Source of the DNA: Paramecium tetraurelia
Taxonomy: Eukaryota
Length of the DNA stretch: 61,095 nucleotides
Reading direction: 5' to 3'
NCBI GenBank assembly: GCA_000165425.1
Contig: CT868033.1
Coordinates: 186,001 to 247,095, forward strand
Positions 18,477-57,899 of the stretch are shown piece after piece (the first letter of the stretch is position 1; each line of letters starts with the position of its first letter). A program made the translations under genes and the position numbers. Below the pieces are notes generated by a model. That model was not told the DNA's origin. It did not search any database and saw only the letters and a program-made list of their open reading frames with translations.

Positions 18477-18749
18477 AAATAGTAATGATCATCAACATTA
18501 GTTATTAAAATAATTTTCATCATCTCTTATTTTGTCAATAAATTTTCTAATTATTGTATTTGAAATTATTAGAGAACTTGCAGTTGACAATTGAATATAT
18601 GCAAAACAGGAATTAAAATAAAGTGCTAAAAAACTCTAAAGTAAAATTTTGTATAATTACAATTTTTATATTAAAAGTATAACTCCATTAGAATTAATTA
18701 ATAGAAGAGCAGATTAAAGCGCAAAAAATCATCTTAGAAATAGTTATAT

Positions 18750-20560
18750 TATTTGAAGATTGGTTGAGTGATTACTATCAATATGCCCAGAGAAAATATA
18801 GAGTAAAAATAAAGTCTGCAATTTTATGCATCCAAGATGATTTGTCGGAATTTTTACTAGCAATTAAGTAGTAACTATTAGAAATTTTTCCTAATAGTAT
18901 TTCAAAGATGCTCTAAATGATATCAATTGATGGAGTTTTTATTATTAATCTATGCCCAGAGTCTGATTTCAAAAACAGCAATTGCTACTATCTACGCAGA
19001 GTTTGGGTATCAAAGAGAAAATATTTGCATTAAAATACTTACAAAGTATTGATCTTGTAAATGGGAAAGTGAAAAAATTAAAAGCATATTGATTTAGAAG
19101 AACTCTGATAATAGGTGTCGAAGAAATATGAGTATAACATTTTAAGTCCTGAGACACTAATAGACTTTCATAGAATATATAATTCTTTAGAAAAAAAAAT
19201 ACTGCCTCAAGAACTTCAAAGGTATTGTGATTACAAAAGACCGAGTCTTAAATTTCATATAGATTAGGAGAAAGTTAAATATGTATCAGCTGAATAGTTT
19301 AAAAGAAAAAAATTGAAGCCTTTATTCGCAGTTAAAGGCCAGAGTTAGAAAAAATGGATACCAAGTCATGTACAAAGTTGTAATTGCTTTTCTAAAAATA
19401 AATTTAAAAAAATCATAACATGATGTCTAAAAAGCAAAATTTTGGACGTTGTATTAATAATGGATTTCACTTTTAGTATTTTTCCTTGGATTAATCAAGC
19501 AAAAGAAAGTATATTAGCAATAATCGATATTTTTAATAAAGATGTCTCATAAACATAAATTAAAATTGCTTTTGTTGAATATAGAGGTTTTAAGATGAGA
19601 AGGATTTTTAATATCATGGTTTTATGACGGATGTTTAATTACCAAAATCATTTATACTCTCTAAGCTAATGGTGGTGATGATGAAGCAGAAGATATTGAA
19701 GGCGAAATTGTGCAAGTATTAATTTAAATTTTCGAACCACCGTAATGTATACTTTATTTTCTAGAATAAAGATTTTTACTCATTATCTAACATTACTATT
19801 AAAAATAGTCTTCAGAAAGGATTTCTAATAATACTAATTTCATTGATAAAGAAAAATGAAAATTATTCCGCTTTTAGTCATTTTACAAATAGAGACCTAG
19901 TGATTTCTGATTTTTAGGGAAACTAGAGGTCCTTTCAGATCCACTTATACATCCATTTTAGAAAATTTAACATTTGAAGGATGAAACAAACATTCAAAAT
20001 TTAGGAATTGAAACATTTTTCCAGAGTTAGTTTAATGATAGAGTCTAAAGAAATTAAGTTCATGAAGAGTCTCCTAAAATTGATCATTTCTATAGCTGAA
20101 ATAACTTAACATTCAGAATGTGAATGTAGTTTTTAATGTTTGTGGTGATATTTTCTAAATTATTTTTTATCATTACGATGGTTAAATTGATGATGCCTAT
20201 ACTTACCAAAATGTCTATAGTTTTATGAATTGACTGAAATTTGTGAATGCTGTGGTAATGAATTAAAATTTATTATAAAAAGTGTATTAAATTAAACATT
20301 AGATTTAAAAATATGTGAAGAGTGTTAGAGAGATTACTTAGATTAGAGATGTAATCAAAGTGCATAAATTTTATAAAAGCAAGTCTTTTTCGTGAAAAAT
20401 TTTATAAAAGAAATATGTTTCTACTATTCATCATAATCTGGCAGAAGAAAAGTAAGATAAATTTAATGACACTGATGGAGAATCCAAATATTTATGTGAG
20501 GAAGCATGCTAATTGCTTGAAAACCCATATTGTTTGAACATATACATAATTATTTATTAT
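18750..20560 (+). pseudogene. Degenerate copy of the CCCH-vWA-alpha-kinase gene at 52493-55250, with a large internal deletion
   Basis: Collinear matches: CTATCAATATGCCCAGAG (18776); PWINQAKESI and GGDDEAED vWA remnants (19485-19700); NYSAFSHFT..LVISDFQG kinase remnant (19861-19920); GGAGAATCCAAATATTTATGTGAGGAAGCATGC (20477). Frameshifts and TGA stops throughout. Confidence 0.88.
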
Positions 20561-30597: not shown

Positions 30598-30849
30598 NNN
30601 NNNNNNNNNNNNNNNNNNNNNNNNNNNNNNNNNNNNNNNNNNNNNNNNNNNNNNNNNNNNNNNNNNNNNNNNNNNNNNNNNNNNNNNNNNNNNNNNNNNN
30701 NNNNNNNNNNNNNNNNNNNNNNNNNNNNNNNNNNNNNNNNNNNNNNNNNNNNNNNNNNNNNNNNNNNNNNNNNNNNNNNNNNNNNNNNNNNNNNNNNNNN
30801 NNNNNNNNNNNNNNNNNNNNNNNNNNNNNNNNNNNNNNNNNNNNNNNNN
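30598..30849. other. Assembly gap
   Basis: Run of N. Confidence 1.
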
Positions 30850-51346: not shown

Positions 51347-52492
51347 ACTATCTAATCTATTTGATGATTATCATGAAGTGAATTATGTTATCTTCTTTTA
51401 ATTATTTTGGCAATAAATCTTTAAACCTACTCTAAATTTATTATTTATAAAATTTAAACCAAATAAGAGAAGTAGAAACAGAGGAAAATAATAAAGAATA
51501 ATGATCACTCAGTTTAGTAATGTTTATTCTAAAGAATAAGATAACTCTTATTCCTATAAATTAGATTCTTATTATTAGTTAGGGACTTAAACAAAATATC
51601 ATTTTATAGTTATTATTCTCCTAATCCCAAGTCACCAATTATATATATTAATTGTTCTGATAGTGGGCTTTTGTTCAATGTTATTGGGCATTTTGAATAA
51701 ATATGGTAATACACTGCCATCAACTTAATCTCAACGAGAAATTAATTTTATTTAGTTTTATTGTTCCGTTTGTATATGTCAAAATATTGTCATCTTTCAT
51801 GCCCTTAACAAATTTTCTTTATAAAGGGATTTGACTATTTACGCTAAACTAAAGGAGCATTCATTTTTAATGATAAAATTCTAATGCTTCTAAATGAAAA
51901 TCTATGGTCCCTAATTTGCTTTCCATCTAACAGCTATATTTGAAGAATCCATTTAATGCAATTGTATAACAGAATTCTTTGGCAATATATATTCAAAAAT
52001 TCTGAAAAATAATTATTGATTAATAGTTATCATATATTATCAATAAATAGTAAAAATTACCTAACTATTATAATGACAAGAGAATTTTAGCAGAATGATT
52101 TATACTGTTGGTTTTTTATGGGGGATTTTATGTGTATAACAGAAACATCGACAAGACATTCCTTAATAAATAATTATTAATGAAATTTATCTAATAGAAG
52201 TATTTTGGGTTAATTAAATGCTGTAAAAATAATGTTAAAGTCTTTGATAATATTTGTAAATTATATGAATTAATTCATTTTTATGATCTGCATTGAAATG
52301 ATATATGTAATATAATTCTTAAAGATAGCAAAGAAATAAAGCATGATACTAAGTTGGGATGAACATCAATTTTTCAGTCGAGATTAATAATAATTTTAAC
52401 TGCAATTTTGTATTAAAAATTCCTAATTCTATTAGAATTTAAATTAGAGAAGGGAAGATTAAAATGAACAAAATCAATTTTGAAATATTTAA

Positions 52493-55250
52493 ATGATTCA
52501 AAAGTTATTTGAGTCATTGCTATCAATATGCCCAGAGAATATAAAATGTAAAAATAATGGATGTAATCTAATGCATCCAAGATGCTTTGCAGGAATTTGT
52601 ATTCACAATTTAAATGGTAATTGCAAGAAACCTTGCCCTAAGAATTTAATTCATATAAGCAAGGGTAGTTTGAAAGAGAAACTGTAAATGCATTCAATTA
52701 ATGGAGTTTTCGTTATTAATCTATGCCCAACATTTGATTGTAAAAATAGCAATTGCTATTATCTGCACAGAGATTGGATATAAAAGAGAAATATTTGCAT
52801 TAAATATTTAAAAAACAATGATGACTGTGAGGGTGAATGTGAAAAAAATTAAAAGCATGTTGATTGGCAATAACTACAATCAGAAGTATTTAAAGAATAT
52901 GAGTATATGAATTTAAGTCCAGAAACGATGATAGTTGTCGATAAAATATATTATGATTTAGAGAAATATTGCATTAAGTACTTCAAAGGTATTTGTGATT
53001 ATAAAGGAATATGTCCCAAATTTCATGTTGATTGGGAGAAAGTTAAATATGTATCAGCTAAATAGTTTGAAAGAAAAAAATTGGTACCATGCACTCGTAG
53101 TTAAAAGCCTGAGGTATAAAGAATGGATAGCAAGTCATTTACAAAATTGGAATTGCTTTTCGAAAAATAAAATCTTAAAAAATTATAACATGATATCAGA
53201 GCAAGCAACATTTTGGATATTGTATTTATAATGGATTGTACTGGAAGCATGGATCCTTGGATTAATCAAGCAAGAGAAAGCATATCAGAAATAATCAATA
53301 TTTTTAACAAAGCAGTATCATAAACATAAATTAGAATTGCTTTTGTTGGCTATCGAGATTTTAAAGACGAGAAACATATTTAATATCATGATTTTACAAC
53401 GGATGTCGAATTAATTAAATCATATATAAGTACTGTCTAAGCTGACGGTGGTGATGATGATGCAGAAGACCTAGCAGGGGGAATTTCGCAAGTTTTAAAA
53501 TTGGACTTTTCGAAGCACTCTTAAAGTATTCTTTGCACATTTTTGATATGTGACGCTCCAACACATGGCAAATAATATCATGATTATTCAGTTTCAGATA
53601 AACATAACGACTGTATTTAAGAGGGTTCTTTGGAAAATCTTATGTAAATTTTGGATTAAGAAGAGACTCCTAATAATTATTTCTTTTGTTGTAAACTAAA
53701 CGAAACTACAAATCAGATGTTTGAGATTATGAAATAAAACTTCAAGAATTTAGAAATGAGTTAATTAGAAACAAAAGATTTTACAAATTATGTATCTATA
53801 TCCATGATTAAGTCTTTTCAATCCTCCTGTCTAATTCAAAAGAACATTTCATAAACATAAGGGTTTCAAGCACATTTTATTTGGCATAAAGTAATTGAAC
53901 CAGTTGAATGCACACAAACGCACTCAGCTAAACCTCACTTTTTCTAATTTTTTTAACTTAAATGCGCAAATAACAAATTGGCGGCGCTACAATTTTAGCA
54001 ATAGCAATGCATGAGCAATCATTGCGCTCAAATGCTAATGCCAAGGCTTCCTATATCTTCGCAGCATTTGATATTAGCACTCCTTTGCCCATTATTATGG
54101 AGCTTCCAAAGGGCGCTGCAGATCAGTATAAGGGCGGCTAAGCTGATTAAGCTATTATTTAATAGGCGCAAGTTTCATCTCATGTTAGATATAATTAGCC
54201 TTTAATAGCAAAACAACTAAGTAGTGCTTAAGCTATTAAGCTAATNNNNNNNNNNNNNNNNNNNNNNNNNNNNNNNNNNNNNNNNNNNNNNNNNNNNNNN
54301 NNNNNNNNNNNNNNNNNNNNNNNNNNNNNNNNNNNNNNNNNNNNNNNNNNNNNNNNNNNNNNNNNNNNNNNNNNNNNNNNNNNNNNNNNNNNNNNTCCCA
54401 ATTTCATAGATAAGGAGAAAGAAAACTATTTTGCTTTTTGTCATTTTTACATATCATTTTACAAATCGAAGCTTAGTGATTTACTGATCTATAAGGGAAA
54501 CAAGGAGTCCTTTCCGATCCATGCATACATACCTCTAAGGTAATTACATACTTGATAGATGAAACAAATCATGGCGATTTAGGAATTTAAAGATTTTTTT
54601 CAACTTAGCATAATTAGTGCAATGAAGTTTGCAAATTTTTAGGATTATAGAGAAATGATGATGATGATAAAATTCCTGAAAACAGAATATTTACACAGCT
54701 GTAATAACTTAACATTCAAAATGTGAATGCAATTTGCAATGTTTGTAATGATATTTTCTAAATTAATTATGATAAATACAAAGGTTAAATTGATAATGAC
54801 GACACTTGCCAAAGTTGCACTTAGGTTAATGAATTGACTGAAATTTGCGAATGCTGCGGAAATTAATTTAAATTTAATCTGAATAGGGTATTGAAGTAAG
54901 CGTTAGATTTAAAAATATGCGAAGATTGTTAGAGAGATTGTTTGGATTAGAGATGTAATCAATGTGCATTACAATGTGCGTTAACTTTATAAAAGCAACC
55001 CACTTTTTGTAAACAATGTGATATAAAGGAATAATGTTTTTACTGTTCATCAAAATGTGCTAGAAGAAATATAAAGAGAAAAGTTAATGATACTAATGGA
55101 GAATCCAAGTACTTATGTGAGGAAGCATGCCAATTTTTTGAAAACTTATATTGTTTCGAATGCTTATCCGCTTTTTCTTATCAAAATTGGCCTTCTTAGG
55201 TGGAATATGTTAAAGGAGAGTACAAATGCTACAATTGCTAAAATTAATGA
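52493..55250 (+). CDS. Multidomain atypical kinase: ~5 CCCH zinc fingers + vWA (MIDAS) + alpha-kinase (eEF2K/MHCK/VwkA family) + C-terminal CxxC-rich region; spans an assembly gap
   Basis: Fingers CPENIKCKNNGCNLMH, CPTFDCKNSNCYYLH, CIKYFKGICDYKGICPKFH. vWA LDIVFIMDCTGSMDPWI..RIAFVGYRDF..GGDDDAEDL..CDAPTHG. After the gap YFAFCHFTYHFTNRSLVITDLQG..LSDPCIH..ETNHGDLGIQRFFSTQHNQCNEVCKFLGL (two extra T in homopolymers near 54445 and 54481). ~10 CxxC pairs. TGA at 55248-55250. Confidence 0.88.
54246..54395. other. Assembly gap inside the alpha-kinase domain
   Basis: Run of N. Confidence 1.
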
Positions 55251-57144
55251 ATATATTATTATTTATTATATCCATAATTATTTATAATTAGCTCTTTGAT
55301 AAATTGAGATTTTGCTATTTATAAAAATAATTTGCTTGCATCATCATTAGAACCATTTGAATATTAGATAAATACAAAAGTAGATGATATAATTATAATT
55401 ACTAAATTTGTGGTTATTGTAATGAAAACATAAAGTATTTTAAAATATGGGAAGAACTCTATCATATTATTGTGAGTAAAACAAATGAAATCTGACTGCA
55501 AATTTAGGTGATTGAAAAGTGAATATTTAGAGAGTTTGGAAGAGGATTATAAGAAAAAAACCATGATGCTATTGTTAGATAATCGTTTTTAATGGGGCTG
55601 ATTTATATAGGGTGTAATCGAAATCAATTGGTTTTAGGATAAAAACACAGAAATTATTAAGTTTCGAGTCTGATTGACTCAATCACTTTAAAAAAATATA
55701 TGGATAAAATTTTAATGGGCAATTTTATAATGATGACGTAAATGTGGAAGCAAAATATAGAAAAATGATAAATCTGTTATTAGAATTGGAAGTATGTATG
55801 AGTAAAGGCCTTTGAAGTGTTATTAATGAATAATTTAGCATATACTTTCTAACATATATCAAAGGAAGAAATGATTGTTGGAAATTGATGATCATATGAT
55901 TAACAGTAAGAAATCTAGTTTATAAAACCCTAAAAATAATATTAAAAAGTAAGTTAATTTTCTGTAAAAGTATAAAAAATAATACCAAAAATAATTACTG
56001 TTCTAACATAAAATTTCAGTTCTTAAGGAAAAAAAGAATAAAATACCAATTATATATAACCCATTTGTGAAGTTCTATGATTTAATGCATAATAATTAAA
56101 ATTAATGCCAACTATCAATAAAAGTAGTTTTTTGTTTTTTAATTAAAACGCCAGGCATACTATAAATTGTTTATAAACTCCAATTAAAAGTATCCAAAAA
56201 ATGAATTTTTTCATCCAAAACTTTTAATAAAAGAAGAGTTAAATCACTTAGTTTAATTGGGTATAATATCTTAGAATCTTGTATTGTAAGGCTAGCAAAA
56301 ACGTAAATTCTTAAAAATCATTTCAATATTCAGTTCACAAATTAGGTCTGCAAGATAATATTGAAATGCAGTATAACAATTCTCATTTATATTATTAAGA
56401 AAATTCTATTTTACCGCCTTAAATCCTACTGTATTTGTAATATCTTCTAAGGTGAAGAAACCGAATTTTAAATTATTTATTCCACATTTACTTTAGAGAA
56501 TATGAAATATTTGGATGAAGACTTTACTATGAGGTTAAAATTGAGAAAAAGTAACCCTAAAAATAATTTAAGCGAAGTTAGAAGGAATCAAAATCTATCT
56601 ATTCTTGTAAATTGTTTTTCTCCATAGCTGAAACTCATTTATATTATAAATCAATAATTTGTACCGAAGTGAGAATTTTTTTAGTTTCTAGAATTAAATT
56701 ATTGGAAAATAGACTGTTTAAAGTATATTTATTATCAAATTATTAAAATCATTATTAAATTTACTTTAAAGGGGGAGATAATTTATTATTATTAGATAAA
56801 CTTAATAACATAAATCAATAAAAATGCTATATAGTGATGGCAATAATTTATAAGAAATATCTAAATTTGTATCATTCCATCAAAATATTAAGAGGAATAA
56901 ACCATGCTCAAATTATTATTCTAAATATAAATTTGATTTTGGAATATTTTATAAACATTAAATTCTATGATTTTATATGATTCTATTTGTATATCACCAT
57001 GTCAAATGTAATTTTTTAATCAGAATTATATCCAAATGATAACAAATATTTGAATTTCATTTTCCTTAATGTTCAAAAAATATCTGAAATGCTTGATCAA
57101 AAAAATATAAACAAACTCAACACCTGCTATTTTATTTAACAATA

Positions 57145-57610
57145 NNNNNNNNNNNNNNNNNNNNNNNNNNNNNNNNNNNNNNNNNNNNNNNNNNNNNNNN
57201 NNNNNNNNNNNNNNNNNNNNNNNNNNNNNNNNNNNNNNNNNNNNNNNNNNNNNNNNNNNNNNNNNNNNNNNNNNNNNNNNNNNNNNNNNNNNNNNNNNNN
57301 NNNNNNNNNNNNNNNNNNNNNNNNNNNNNNNNNNNNNNNNNNNNNNNNNNNNNNNNNNNNNNNNNNNNNNNNNNNNNNNNNNNNNNNNNNNNNNNNNNNN
57401 NNNNNNNNNNNNNNNNNNNNNNNNNNNNNNNNNNNNNNNNNNNNNNNNNNNNNNNNNNNNNNNNNNNNNNNNNNNNNNNNNNNNNNNNNNNNNNNNNNNN
57501 NNNNNNNNNNNNNNNNNNNNNNNNNNNNNNNNNNNNNNNNNNNNNNNNNNNNNNNNNNNNNNNNNNNNNNNNNNNNNNNNNNNNNNNNNNNNNNNNNNNN
57601 NNNNNNNNNN
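57145..57610. other. Assembly gap
   Basis: Run of N. Confidence 1.
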
Positions 57611-57899
57611 TTATTTAAAGCTAAGCAATCATTTTTATGCTATTTTTTTTTAAATTGACTAATGGAATAACTACCAATTCTACTTATATGCTGATACAAA
57701 AGTTGAAAATTTTTAGTTATACTACCTTAACAAACTTTCATTTTCAAATTCACTGAATTTACTTGTTTTTACTAGGTTTCTAATATAATCTAGGACATTA
57801 AAAAGTATTTAAAAAACTAAAAAAGTAGAGTACCATAATTTTAGAAATTTACTTATTGCCCTTAATAATCTCATTTTCTCAAAAATTTACAATTGTGAA

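Follow-up and report, generated by a model that had tools for sequence, protein, structure and literature searches.

The gene analysed here lies on the + strand at 52493..55250 of a 61,095-nucleotide (nt) stretch of Paramecium tetraurelia DNA (assembly GCA_000165425.1, contig CT868033.1, positions 186,001 to 247,095), which is referred to as “the window” in this study and to which all positions refer. Its predicted product carries CCCH zinc fingers, a vWA domain, an alpha-kinase domain and a cysteine-rich tail, in this order. Our results show that it is an intact, intronless macronuclear gene and that its breaks in the window were introduced by assembly errors where the scaffold has a gap. As judged from sequence comparisons, they also show that the gene represents a Paramecium-specific expanded branch of a CCCH-vWA-alpha-kinase-4xCxxC family of ciliates and oomycetes.

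An intact gene across a scaffold gap

The gene begins with an ATG at 52493, ends with a TGA at 55248-55250 and is open only under ciliate code 6, in which TGA is the sole stop; the window is AT-rich, with 20-34% G+C around the locus. The gene structure was examined by tblastn using the intact 914-amino-acid (aa) ortholog of P. pentaurelia, P0003, as the query. Residues 1-475 of P0003 aligned to 52493-53911 in a single frame with 75% identity and without intron-sized insertions, residues 473-581 to 53908-54228 in a different frame with 49% identity, residues 635-661 just 3' of a run of N in two further frames, and residues 661-913 to 54480-55244 with 70% identity. As the sequences on either side of the gap are collinear with a single ortholog, the gap lies inside one gene and does not separate two, in keeping with the preliminary description of this DNA, which had treated the two sides as one gene.

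Contigs from three DNA runs and one RNA-seq run (X1, X11, X14 and X20) were then compared to the window across 52400-55300. In each run, a single contig bridges 54230 to 54398 with 155 letters between these positions, which together with the flanking bases amounts to 159 nt, or 53 codons. Relative to the window, the contigs show 69 letter differences and 5 gaps between 52400 and 54230, and 2-3 letter differences and 2 gaps between 54398 and 55300. Over the span of the coding sequence (CDS) they are 19 letters shorter than the window (2758 - 19 = 2739 = 3 x 913), and the CDS inferred from these independent contigs is thus 2739 nt long, with 913 codons (912 aa plus the stop). Five surplus letters in the window account for the frame change before the gap, and two for the change after it; the five were assumed to lie within 53912-54230, as the frame is unbroken to 53911.

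Among the differences closest to the gap (from about 53914), C-to-A predominates and some are G-to-A, and at dozens of places beside the gap a C or G of the window reads A or T in all four runs. All four frame changes fall within a stretch that begins about 340 nt upstream of the N run and extends 85 nt past it, and the remaining ~2.2 kb of the CDS contains no in-frame TGA. Since the contig corrections restore a length divisible by three, the frameshifts and the C/G miscalls are assembly errors and not signs of pseudogene decay. Of 24 public runs, 19 contain at least half of the sampled words, with shares of 0.65-0.67, which is compatible with an error-laden stretch that is missing from real reads. 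The RNA-seq contigs cover 26 of 30 bins, the gap joint included, and the bins without cover span 53758-53951. No full-length model of this gene was present among the proteins found in the searches run here, as the reference assembly breaks the gene; the evidence above shows it to be whole.

Several other observations concern the quality of the window. The stretches 53900-54245 and 54397-54482 show dense miscalls at contig ends, single-base insertions and a G+C content of up to 34%. Genes adjoining the gaps at 30598-30849 and 57145-57610 may be similarly damaged, and the G+C content drops to 6% at 57000-57750. Within the intact part of the gene, the window has G at 52955, 52963, 53660, 53663, 53725, 53758, 53812, 53842 and 53861-53863, where all three DNA runs have A; the RNA-seq run also has A at the first four of these positions, where covered. 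These positions are either reference errors or strain differences. The four neighbouring open reading frames had no Pfam match.

A second copy of the gene, decayed, sits 34 kb upstream (Table 1). It is 76% identical to the gene over 1135 nt and 73% over 758 nt, and about 870 nt have been deleted from its middle, comprising the C-terminal half of the vWA domain and the kinase N-lobe. P0030, a public P. tetraurelia gene model of 293 aa, runs across this copy.

Domains of the predicted protein

The N-terminal 236 aa contain 17 Cys and 8 His and comprise five Cys3His motifs (Table 1). When a spacing of C-x4-15-C-x4-6-C-x3-H was required, fingers 1, 3 and 5 fitted strictly and the other two loosely (x3/x5), with canonical counterparts in the paralogs. 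None of 20,000 composition-preserving shuffles reached four loose motifs (five observed) or three strict ones (three observed). The counterparts of finger 2 in the paralogs read C-x(n)-C-x4-5-C-x3-H, and finger 4 is a degenerate version of the C-x7-C-x5-C-x3-H motif found in paralogs P0024 and P0031, its third Cys being missing in P0008 and P0026. Across 14 family members the finger Cys and His residues are invariant or nearly so: C78, C83, C88, H92 and W95 of finger 3 are invariant in 14 sequences, and C160, G166, C168, C174, H178 and W181 of finger 5 in 13. A Trp three residues past the His is invariant in fingers 3 and 5, and nearly so in finger 4. Finger 5 is the one common to relatives outside Paramecium, and hhalign pairs it with the vWA-proximal CCCH finger of the wider family. 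Judged by spacing, conservation and homology to fingers of relatives that pass Pfam thresholds, the five motifs are CCCH-type fingers, and RNA binding by them is plausible.

An AlphaFold2 model of residues 1-236, built from 14 sequences, had a mean predicted local distance difference test (pLDDT) score of 78.1 and a predicted template modelling (pTM) score of 0.70, with 185 residues at or above 70. In this model the five fingers are predicted to pack as one compact body, followed by a disordered linker (aa 188-212) and a helix (aa 213-235). Several fingers of Nab2 (5-7) likewise pack into one unit. No significant match to the N-terminal model was found among the viral predicted structures of BFVD, and the family profile, when run against PDB sequences, retrieved 11 alpha-kinase chains and no CCCH or vWA chain at E <= 10. 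In the ESM Atlas, the N-terminus of the ortholog has CCCH clusters as its neighbours; their scores of 0.80-0.88 lie below the required 0.9, and they serve as a lead only.

The vWA domain was matched by Pfam VWA_4 (PF25106, gathering score 27), and by profile alignment it extends to about aa 440 (~53810). The sequence DCTGS at aa 248-252 (53234-53248) would form the core of a metal ion-dependent adhesion site (MIDAS), with the T of FTTD (about aa 301-304) and D354 of CDAPTHG as further residues of the predicted metal site. Twelve of 13 paralogs retain D-x-T-x-[ST] together with the downstream T and D; the exception is P0026, a disrupted gene model. Also invariant are DCT..M and DAP.HG..YH (in 14 or 13 sequences).

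The alpha-kinase domain is the part damaged by the gap. Identity to P0003 falls from 75% to 49% across the N-lobe, and the first 85 nt of the C-lobe are split over three frames by two extra letters. The motifs AFCHF, TYHFTNRSLVI and TDLQG...DPCIH...HNQCNEVC are all present but lie in three different frames as assembled. The post-gap piece scored 38.7 bits with Pfam PF02816 (gathering score 21.3), and the ortholog P0003 scored 97.6 bits over aa 516-711. The C-lobe of P0003 aligns by sequence to chains of ALPK1, MHCK-A, eEF2K and TRPM7, with E values from 3e-11 to 3e-4. The catalytic residues of TRPM7 are K1648, D1767 and D1777 (PMC2827801). In P0003 numbering, K537, the Glu of YAE/YGE and D663-L664-Q665-G666 are invariant in 13 paralogs, and D673/P674 of [ST]-D-P are nearly so. 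The zinc site, consisting of H649 (FSHF), H704, C707 and C711 (H-x2-C-x3-C), is invariant in the family and is represented in the window by AFCHF and HNQCNEVC. Conservation of the Lys, the Glu, DLQG and the zinc site over 13 paralogs that share 29-68% identity indicates selection on catalysis.

The cysteine-rich tail holds nine non-overlapping CxxC pairs, a number reached by none of 20,000 shuffles, and 18 of its Cys are invariant in the Paramecium family. Its first ~70 aa (CxxC-x20-CxxC-x9-CxCC-x20-CxxC) correspond to the tail found in wider relatives, and the remainder is a Paramecium-specific extension. A model of the tail (pLDDT 68.8, pTM 0.36) shows three beta-hairpin-plus-helix units resembling zinc knuckles. 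Foldseek with this model gave E values of at least 0.7 (LIM, PHD and Stc1 at E 1.6-4), nothing being significant. The best VIA-align Z overall was 3.0, with generic zinc-finger entries only, and residues 121-180 of the tail aligned to RING and B-box structures (Listerin, FANCL, TRIM28 B-box1 and arenavirus Z) at Z of only 2.0-2.9. A homolog search with the tail alone (P0003 aa 722-914) returned 3 close orthologs only and was uninformative on wider relatives. The tail is made up of putative tandem Cys4 zinc modules.

The domains named in the preliminary description were thus recovered: about five CCCH motifs, one canonical and some with Nab2-like spacing; a vWA domain with a DxTGS MIDAS; and the C-lobe motifs of an alpha-kinase. 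The CxxC-rich tail was recovered as well, but with nine CxxC pairs and not about ten.

Table 1. Features of the gene and of its decayed copy in the window
Feature	Position	Strand	Description and evidence
Decayed copy of the same gene (pseudogene)	18664..20535	+	stops and frameshifts in all frames
Whole CDS as assembled	52493..55250	+	intronless; aligns in order to P0003 aa 1-913
CCCH finger 1, aa 13-28	52529..52576	+	C-x5-C-x4-C-x3-H, Nab2-like spacing; motif; Nab2-zf4 sub-threshold
CCCH finger 2, aa 36-54	52598..52654	+	C-x7-C-x3-C-x5-H; C36, C44 invariant; C48, H54 nearly invariant
CCCH finger 3, aa 78-92	52724..52768	+	C-x4-C-x4-C-x3-H with C-x-[YF]-L-H; motif, conservation
CCCH finger 4, aa 102-122	52796..52858	+	C-x9-C-x3-C-x5-H; C102, C112 invariant
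CCCH finger 5, aa 160-178	52970..53026	+	canonical C-x7-C-x5-C-x3-H; conservation; hhalign to wider family
vWA, Pfam-matched part, aa 243-361	53219..53575	+	VWA_4 43.1 bits vs 27; VWA 24.8 vs 23.8
Alpha-kinase N-lobe	53917..54245	+	frame differs from that of the ATG; low-quality contig end with many miscalls and frameshifts
Run of 150 N inside the kinase domain	54246..54395	.	stands for P0003 aa 582-634 (53 codons)
Alpha-kinase C-lobe	54397..54659	+	AFCHF / TYHFTNRSLVI / TDLQGKQGVLSDPCIHT ... HNQCNEVCKFLGL; Pfam, tblastn
Cys-rich tail, 196 aa	54660..55247	+	24 Cys, 9 CxxC; motif count, conservation, model, hhalign

A Paramecium branch of a wider family

A search with residues 1-470 found 22 proteins, the best matches being two of P. 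pentaurelia (77% and 75% identity) and two of P. sonneborni (63% and 62%), all of 910-938 aa; the orthologs are 910-914 aa long. When the first 205 aa were searched against 1.84 billion representative proteins, 14 matches were obtained at E <= 1e-3, of which seven (P0005, P0024-P0027, P0031 and P0032) are full-length family members of 861-924 aa. The other matches were fragments, the model over the decayed copy in the window (P0030), and P0029, a low-complexity repeat protein that was discarded as spurious. All named members of this family are from Paramecium (P. tetraurelia, P. octaurelia, P. sonneborni, P. pentaurelia and P. primaurelia) and bear automatic names only. In six further full-length members that were scanned, Alpha_kinase was found in all six and VWA_4 in five, the model of P0026 being disrupted there.

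Two groups of models from these searches deserve separate mention. P0002, the P. pentaurelia paralog of 938 aa, is out of frame through the kinase core (QKAS to KSLVITDLQG) and at the C-terminus, and represents either a recent pseudogene or a mistake of assembly or annotation. P0021-P0023 (Paramecium, 996-1038 aa) represent another architecture of this genus, with a ubiquitin-like domain, a long coiled-coil-like stretch, a vWA domain and an alpha-kinase domain; their kinase reads DVQG and has no C-terminal H-x-C-x3-C zinc site.

Among the matches of the search with residues 1-470, P0015 and P0016 combine one CCCH finger with a vWA domain, an alpha-kinase domain and four CxxC pairs in the tail. 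P0015, when used as the query, retrieved 173 proteins at E <= 1e-10, including proteins of Tetrahymena thermophila, T. malaccensis, T. utriculariae, Litonotus, Phytophthora capsici, Nothophytophthora and many uncultured eukaryotes. Strict motif patterns were applied to the 120 listed of these 173 relatives, and 68 could be parsed. At least one CCCH motif precedes the vWA domain in 58 of the 68, and at least three CxxC pairs follow the kinase in 65, exactly four in 52. By the same strict patterns, 56 of the 120 combine CCCH, vWA and kinase with three or more CxxC. The CCCH fingers passed Pfam gathering scores in five of eight wider relatives (zf-CCCH, zf-CCCH_4, the Nab2-type zf-CCCH_2, the ZAP-like zf-CCCH_10 and Torus). 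These proteins bear no annotation other than “MHCK/EF2 kinase domain protein” or hypothetical.

An hhalign comparison of 13 Paramecium with 26 wider members gave a probability of 100 and an E value of 4.8e-80, and the alignment spans finger 5, the vWA domain, the kinase and the first CxxC pairs. This span indicates that the four-part plan is old and widespread. The wider-family proteins share with those of Paramecium the module order, the DCTGSM MIDAS and the DAPCHG..YH signature. In contrast, they carry one or two fingers (rarely three or four) and four CxxC pairs, whereas the Paramecium protein has five fingers, nine CxxC pairs and a diverged kinase N-lobe. By this comparison, the Paramecium branch is one that has gained four fingers and a longer tail, has diverged in its kinase N-lobe and has lost the P-loop Arg. 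The novelty suspected for the four-part architecture in the preliminary description was therefore overstated, as the same layout occurs in public proteins of Tetrahymena, Litonotus, Phytophthora and other Paramecium species.

Full-text searches of the main articles in the literature found no functional study of ciliate or oomycete CCCH-vWA-alpha-kinases. The vWA-alpha-kinases of ciliates are mentioned in PMC2827801 and PMC3019232, whose available parts describe no CCCH fingers or Cys tail in them. The term “alpha kinase” is absent from PMC3341644; kinase tables in the supplements of PMC3341644 and PMC3019232 may list these genes.

Possible mechanism and alternative explanations

Alpha-kinases are known with diverse attachments, including WD repeats (myosin), SEL1 repeats (eEF2), the ADP-heptose pocket of ALPK1 and the channel of TRPM7. 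The regulatory parts of eEF2K are a calmodulin site and SEL1-like repeats, and ALPK1 has an N-terminal helical sugar-binding domain. The C-lobe of the Paramecium protein is homologous to those of both kinases (E 6.5e-9 for eEF2K and 3e-11 for ALPK1), but by Pfam their regulatory parts are absent from it, and no shared function can be deduced. The CCCH arrays of Nab2/ZC3H14, TIS11/TTP, MBNL and ZAP have the Cys3His spacing in common with the Paramecium fingers; these proteins, unlike the Paramecium protein, carry no kinase. The tandem fingers of MBNL2 matched the N-terminal model at a Foldseek E of 8.6, which is not significant.

The explanation that we favour, tentatively and with somewhat less than even confidence, is that the gene encodes an active alpha-kinase that is placed by its vWA, CCCH and zinc-tail modules, the fingers acting as a constitutive tether to RNA or ribonucleoprotein (RNP). 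According to this proposal: the protein would be an active Ser/Thr kinase, the location and targets of which are set by its non-catalytic modules; the vWA domain might use its MIDAS to dock an acidic residue on a partner protein; the CCCH array may tether the kinase to single-stranded RNA or to an RNP; the zinc tail could be an extra docking or self-regulating module; and the outcome would be phosphorylation of proteins held near the tethered RNA or partner. Constitutive tethering is favoured over an on/off switch operated by RNA.

However, a number of observations weigh against this proposal. For the N-terminus, no finger reaches the threshold of a Pfam CCCH model (the best being Nab2-zf4, with 14.5-15.7 bits vs 20), and none of the 10 proteins scanned, including six other full-length Paramecium paralogs and two fragmentary models, passes any of these models. 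Foldseek searches of PDB with the N-terminal model gave best E values of 5.6-9.6, none significant, and VIA-align placed none of 48,161 chains at Z >= 2. CCCH fingers that stack on RNA typically have an aromatic residue between their third Cys and the His; here finger 3 alone keeps it, the other four having lost it. The net charge of the N-terminus, from -4 to +9 across the family, is mildly and inconsistently basic. For the kinase, the window has E in the column of the catalytic Lys, a position that falls in the miscalled stretch. The Arg of the P-loop G-x-x-R, which has a role in ATP binding, is invariant in 26 of 26 wider-family members, whereas 12 aligned Paramecium members carry S, V, C, A, T or I in its place; owing to this loss the kinase activity may be altered. 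The D-x-Q-G...DP motif is missing in 44 of the 120 listed relatives, which implies that the scaffold can persist without catalysis. Finally, as the gene has no intron, its RNA-seq cover is indistinguishable from carried-over DNA.

A possible but improbable alternative is that the protein is a regulator of the cytoskeleton or the contractile vacuole like VwkA of Dictyostelium, its zinc modules being structural or protein-binding and RNA not being involved. VwkA, according to the available parts of PMC2827801, has its vWA domain at aa 121-233, with the kinase placed at the extreme C-terminus; it is found on contractile vacuoles and affects myosin II without phosphorylating it. The comparison with VwkA made in the preliminary description was apt, as in both proteins the vWA domain is N-terminal to the alpha-kinase and no WD-repeat domain is present; the weak and variable net charge of the finger region, and the faint resemblance of the tail to protein-binding RING, B-box and LIM folds (Z 2-3), would also fit. 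However, all of these fold matches are far below significance. The order of VwkA is shared but not the C-terminal position of its kinase, since the zinc tail follows the kinase in Paramecium. In addition, no fingers are reported for VwkA in those parts of PMC2827801, a comparison made by description only, whereas the Paramecium protein has five before its vWA domain and has lost the P-loop Arg. The conserved CCCH fingers and tail that flank the core in ciliates and oomycetes argue for a specific ligand.

We consider it still less likely that the protein is an RNA-gated sensor, as suggested in the preliminary description; in this reading, foreign, double-stranded or unusual RNA on the CCCH array would activate the kinase for defence or translational control, by analogy to PKR or ALPK1. 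CCCH fingers are classical RNA binders, the N-terminal finger of one relative passes the ZAP-like model PF22628 (31.1 bits vs 27), and the linkage of finger and kinase has been kept across ciliates and oomycetes. Turnover is suggested by the multi-member family, the decayed copy in the window and the frameshifted paralog model. Against such gating, the fingers of this protein are sub-threshold for every CCCH model, Pfam finds no accessory domain of eEF2K or ALPK1, and the N-terminal model is a rigid unit separated from the vWA domain by a disordered linker.

Slightly less probable still is a catalytically weak or dead scaffold, a pseudokinase the fold of which is kept for binding. Such a scaffold would be in line with the loss of the otherwise invariant P-loop Arg in Paramecium, with the 44 listed relatives that lack D-x-Q-G...DP, and with Pfam kinase scores of 65-107 bits in Paramecium vs 160-187 bits in wider relatives. 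Nevertheless, 13 paralogs share an invariant Lys, Glu and D-L-Q-G as well as the His and Cys of the zinc site, and their D-P is nearly invariant. Many of the 44 relatives (P0107-P0155 and others, from uncultured eukaryotes) keep FSHFSY, H..C...C and the four-CxxC tail; the absence of D-x-Q-G...DP from their sequences suggests a pseudokinase branch of the family. It is very improbable that the organism itself carries the frameshifts, which would make this copy a pseudogene: although the window shows four frame changes and a decayed copy 34 kb upstream, and the paralog model P0002 is out of frame, the changes lie only beside the N run, together with the identity drop and one-directional C/G miscalls, the contigs of three DNA runs drop exactly 5 + 2 letters to give a length divisible by three, and the rest of the gene (~2.2 kb) has no in-frame TGA.

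With regard to the family as a whole, it is conceivable, though we think it improbable, that the CCCH-vWA-alpha-kinase-Cys4 proteins are a protist counterpart of RNA-triggered kinases such as PKR. In that case ZAP-like or Nab2-like fingers would recognise one class of single-stranded RNA, the vWA domain would hold a translation or RNP factor, the kinase would phosphorylate this factor, and the expansion of fingers and tail in Paramecium would have occurred under conflict-like turnover; the state of RNA would then be linked directly to a phosphorylation signal. The family represents a well-conserved and unstudied alpha-kinase design in which RNA-type zinc fingers and MIDAS docking are fused to a kinase in two major protist groups, and crop pathogens belong to one of these, the oomycetes. 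Were RNA binding by the fingers confirmed, the protein would be the first alpha-kinase with a link to RNA, and one amenable to RNA interference by feeding in Paramecium.

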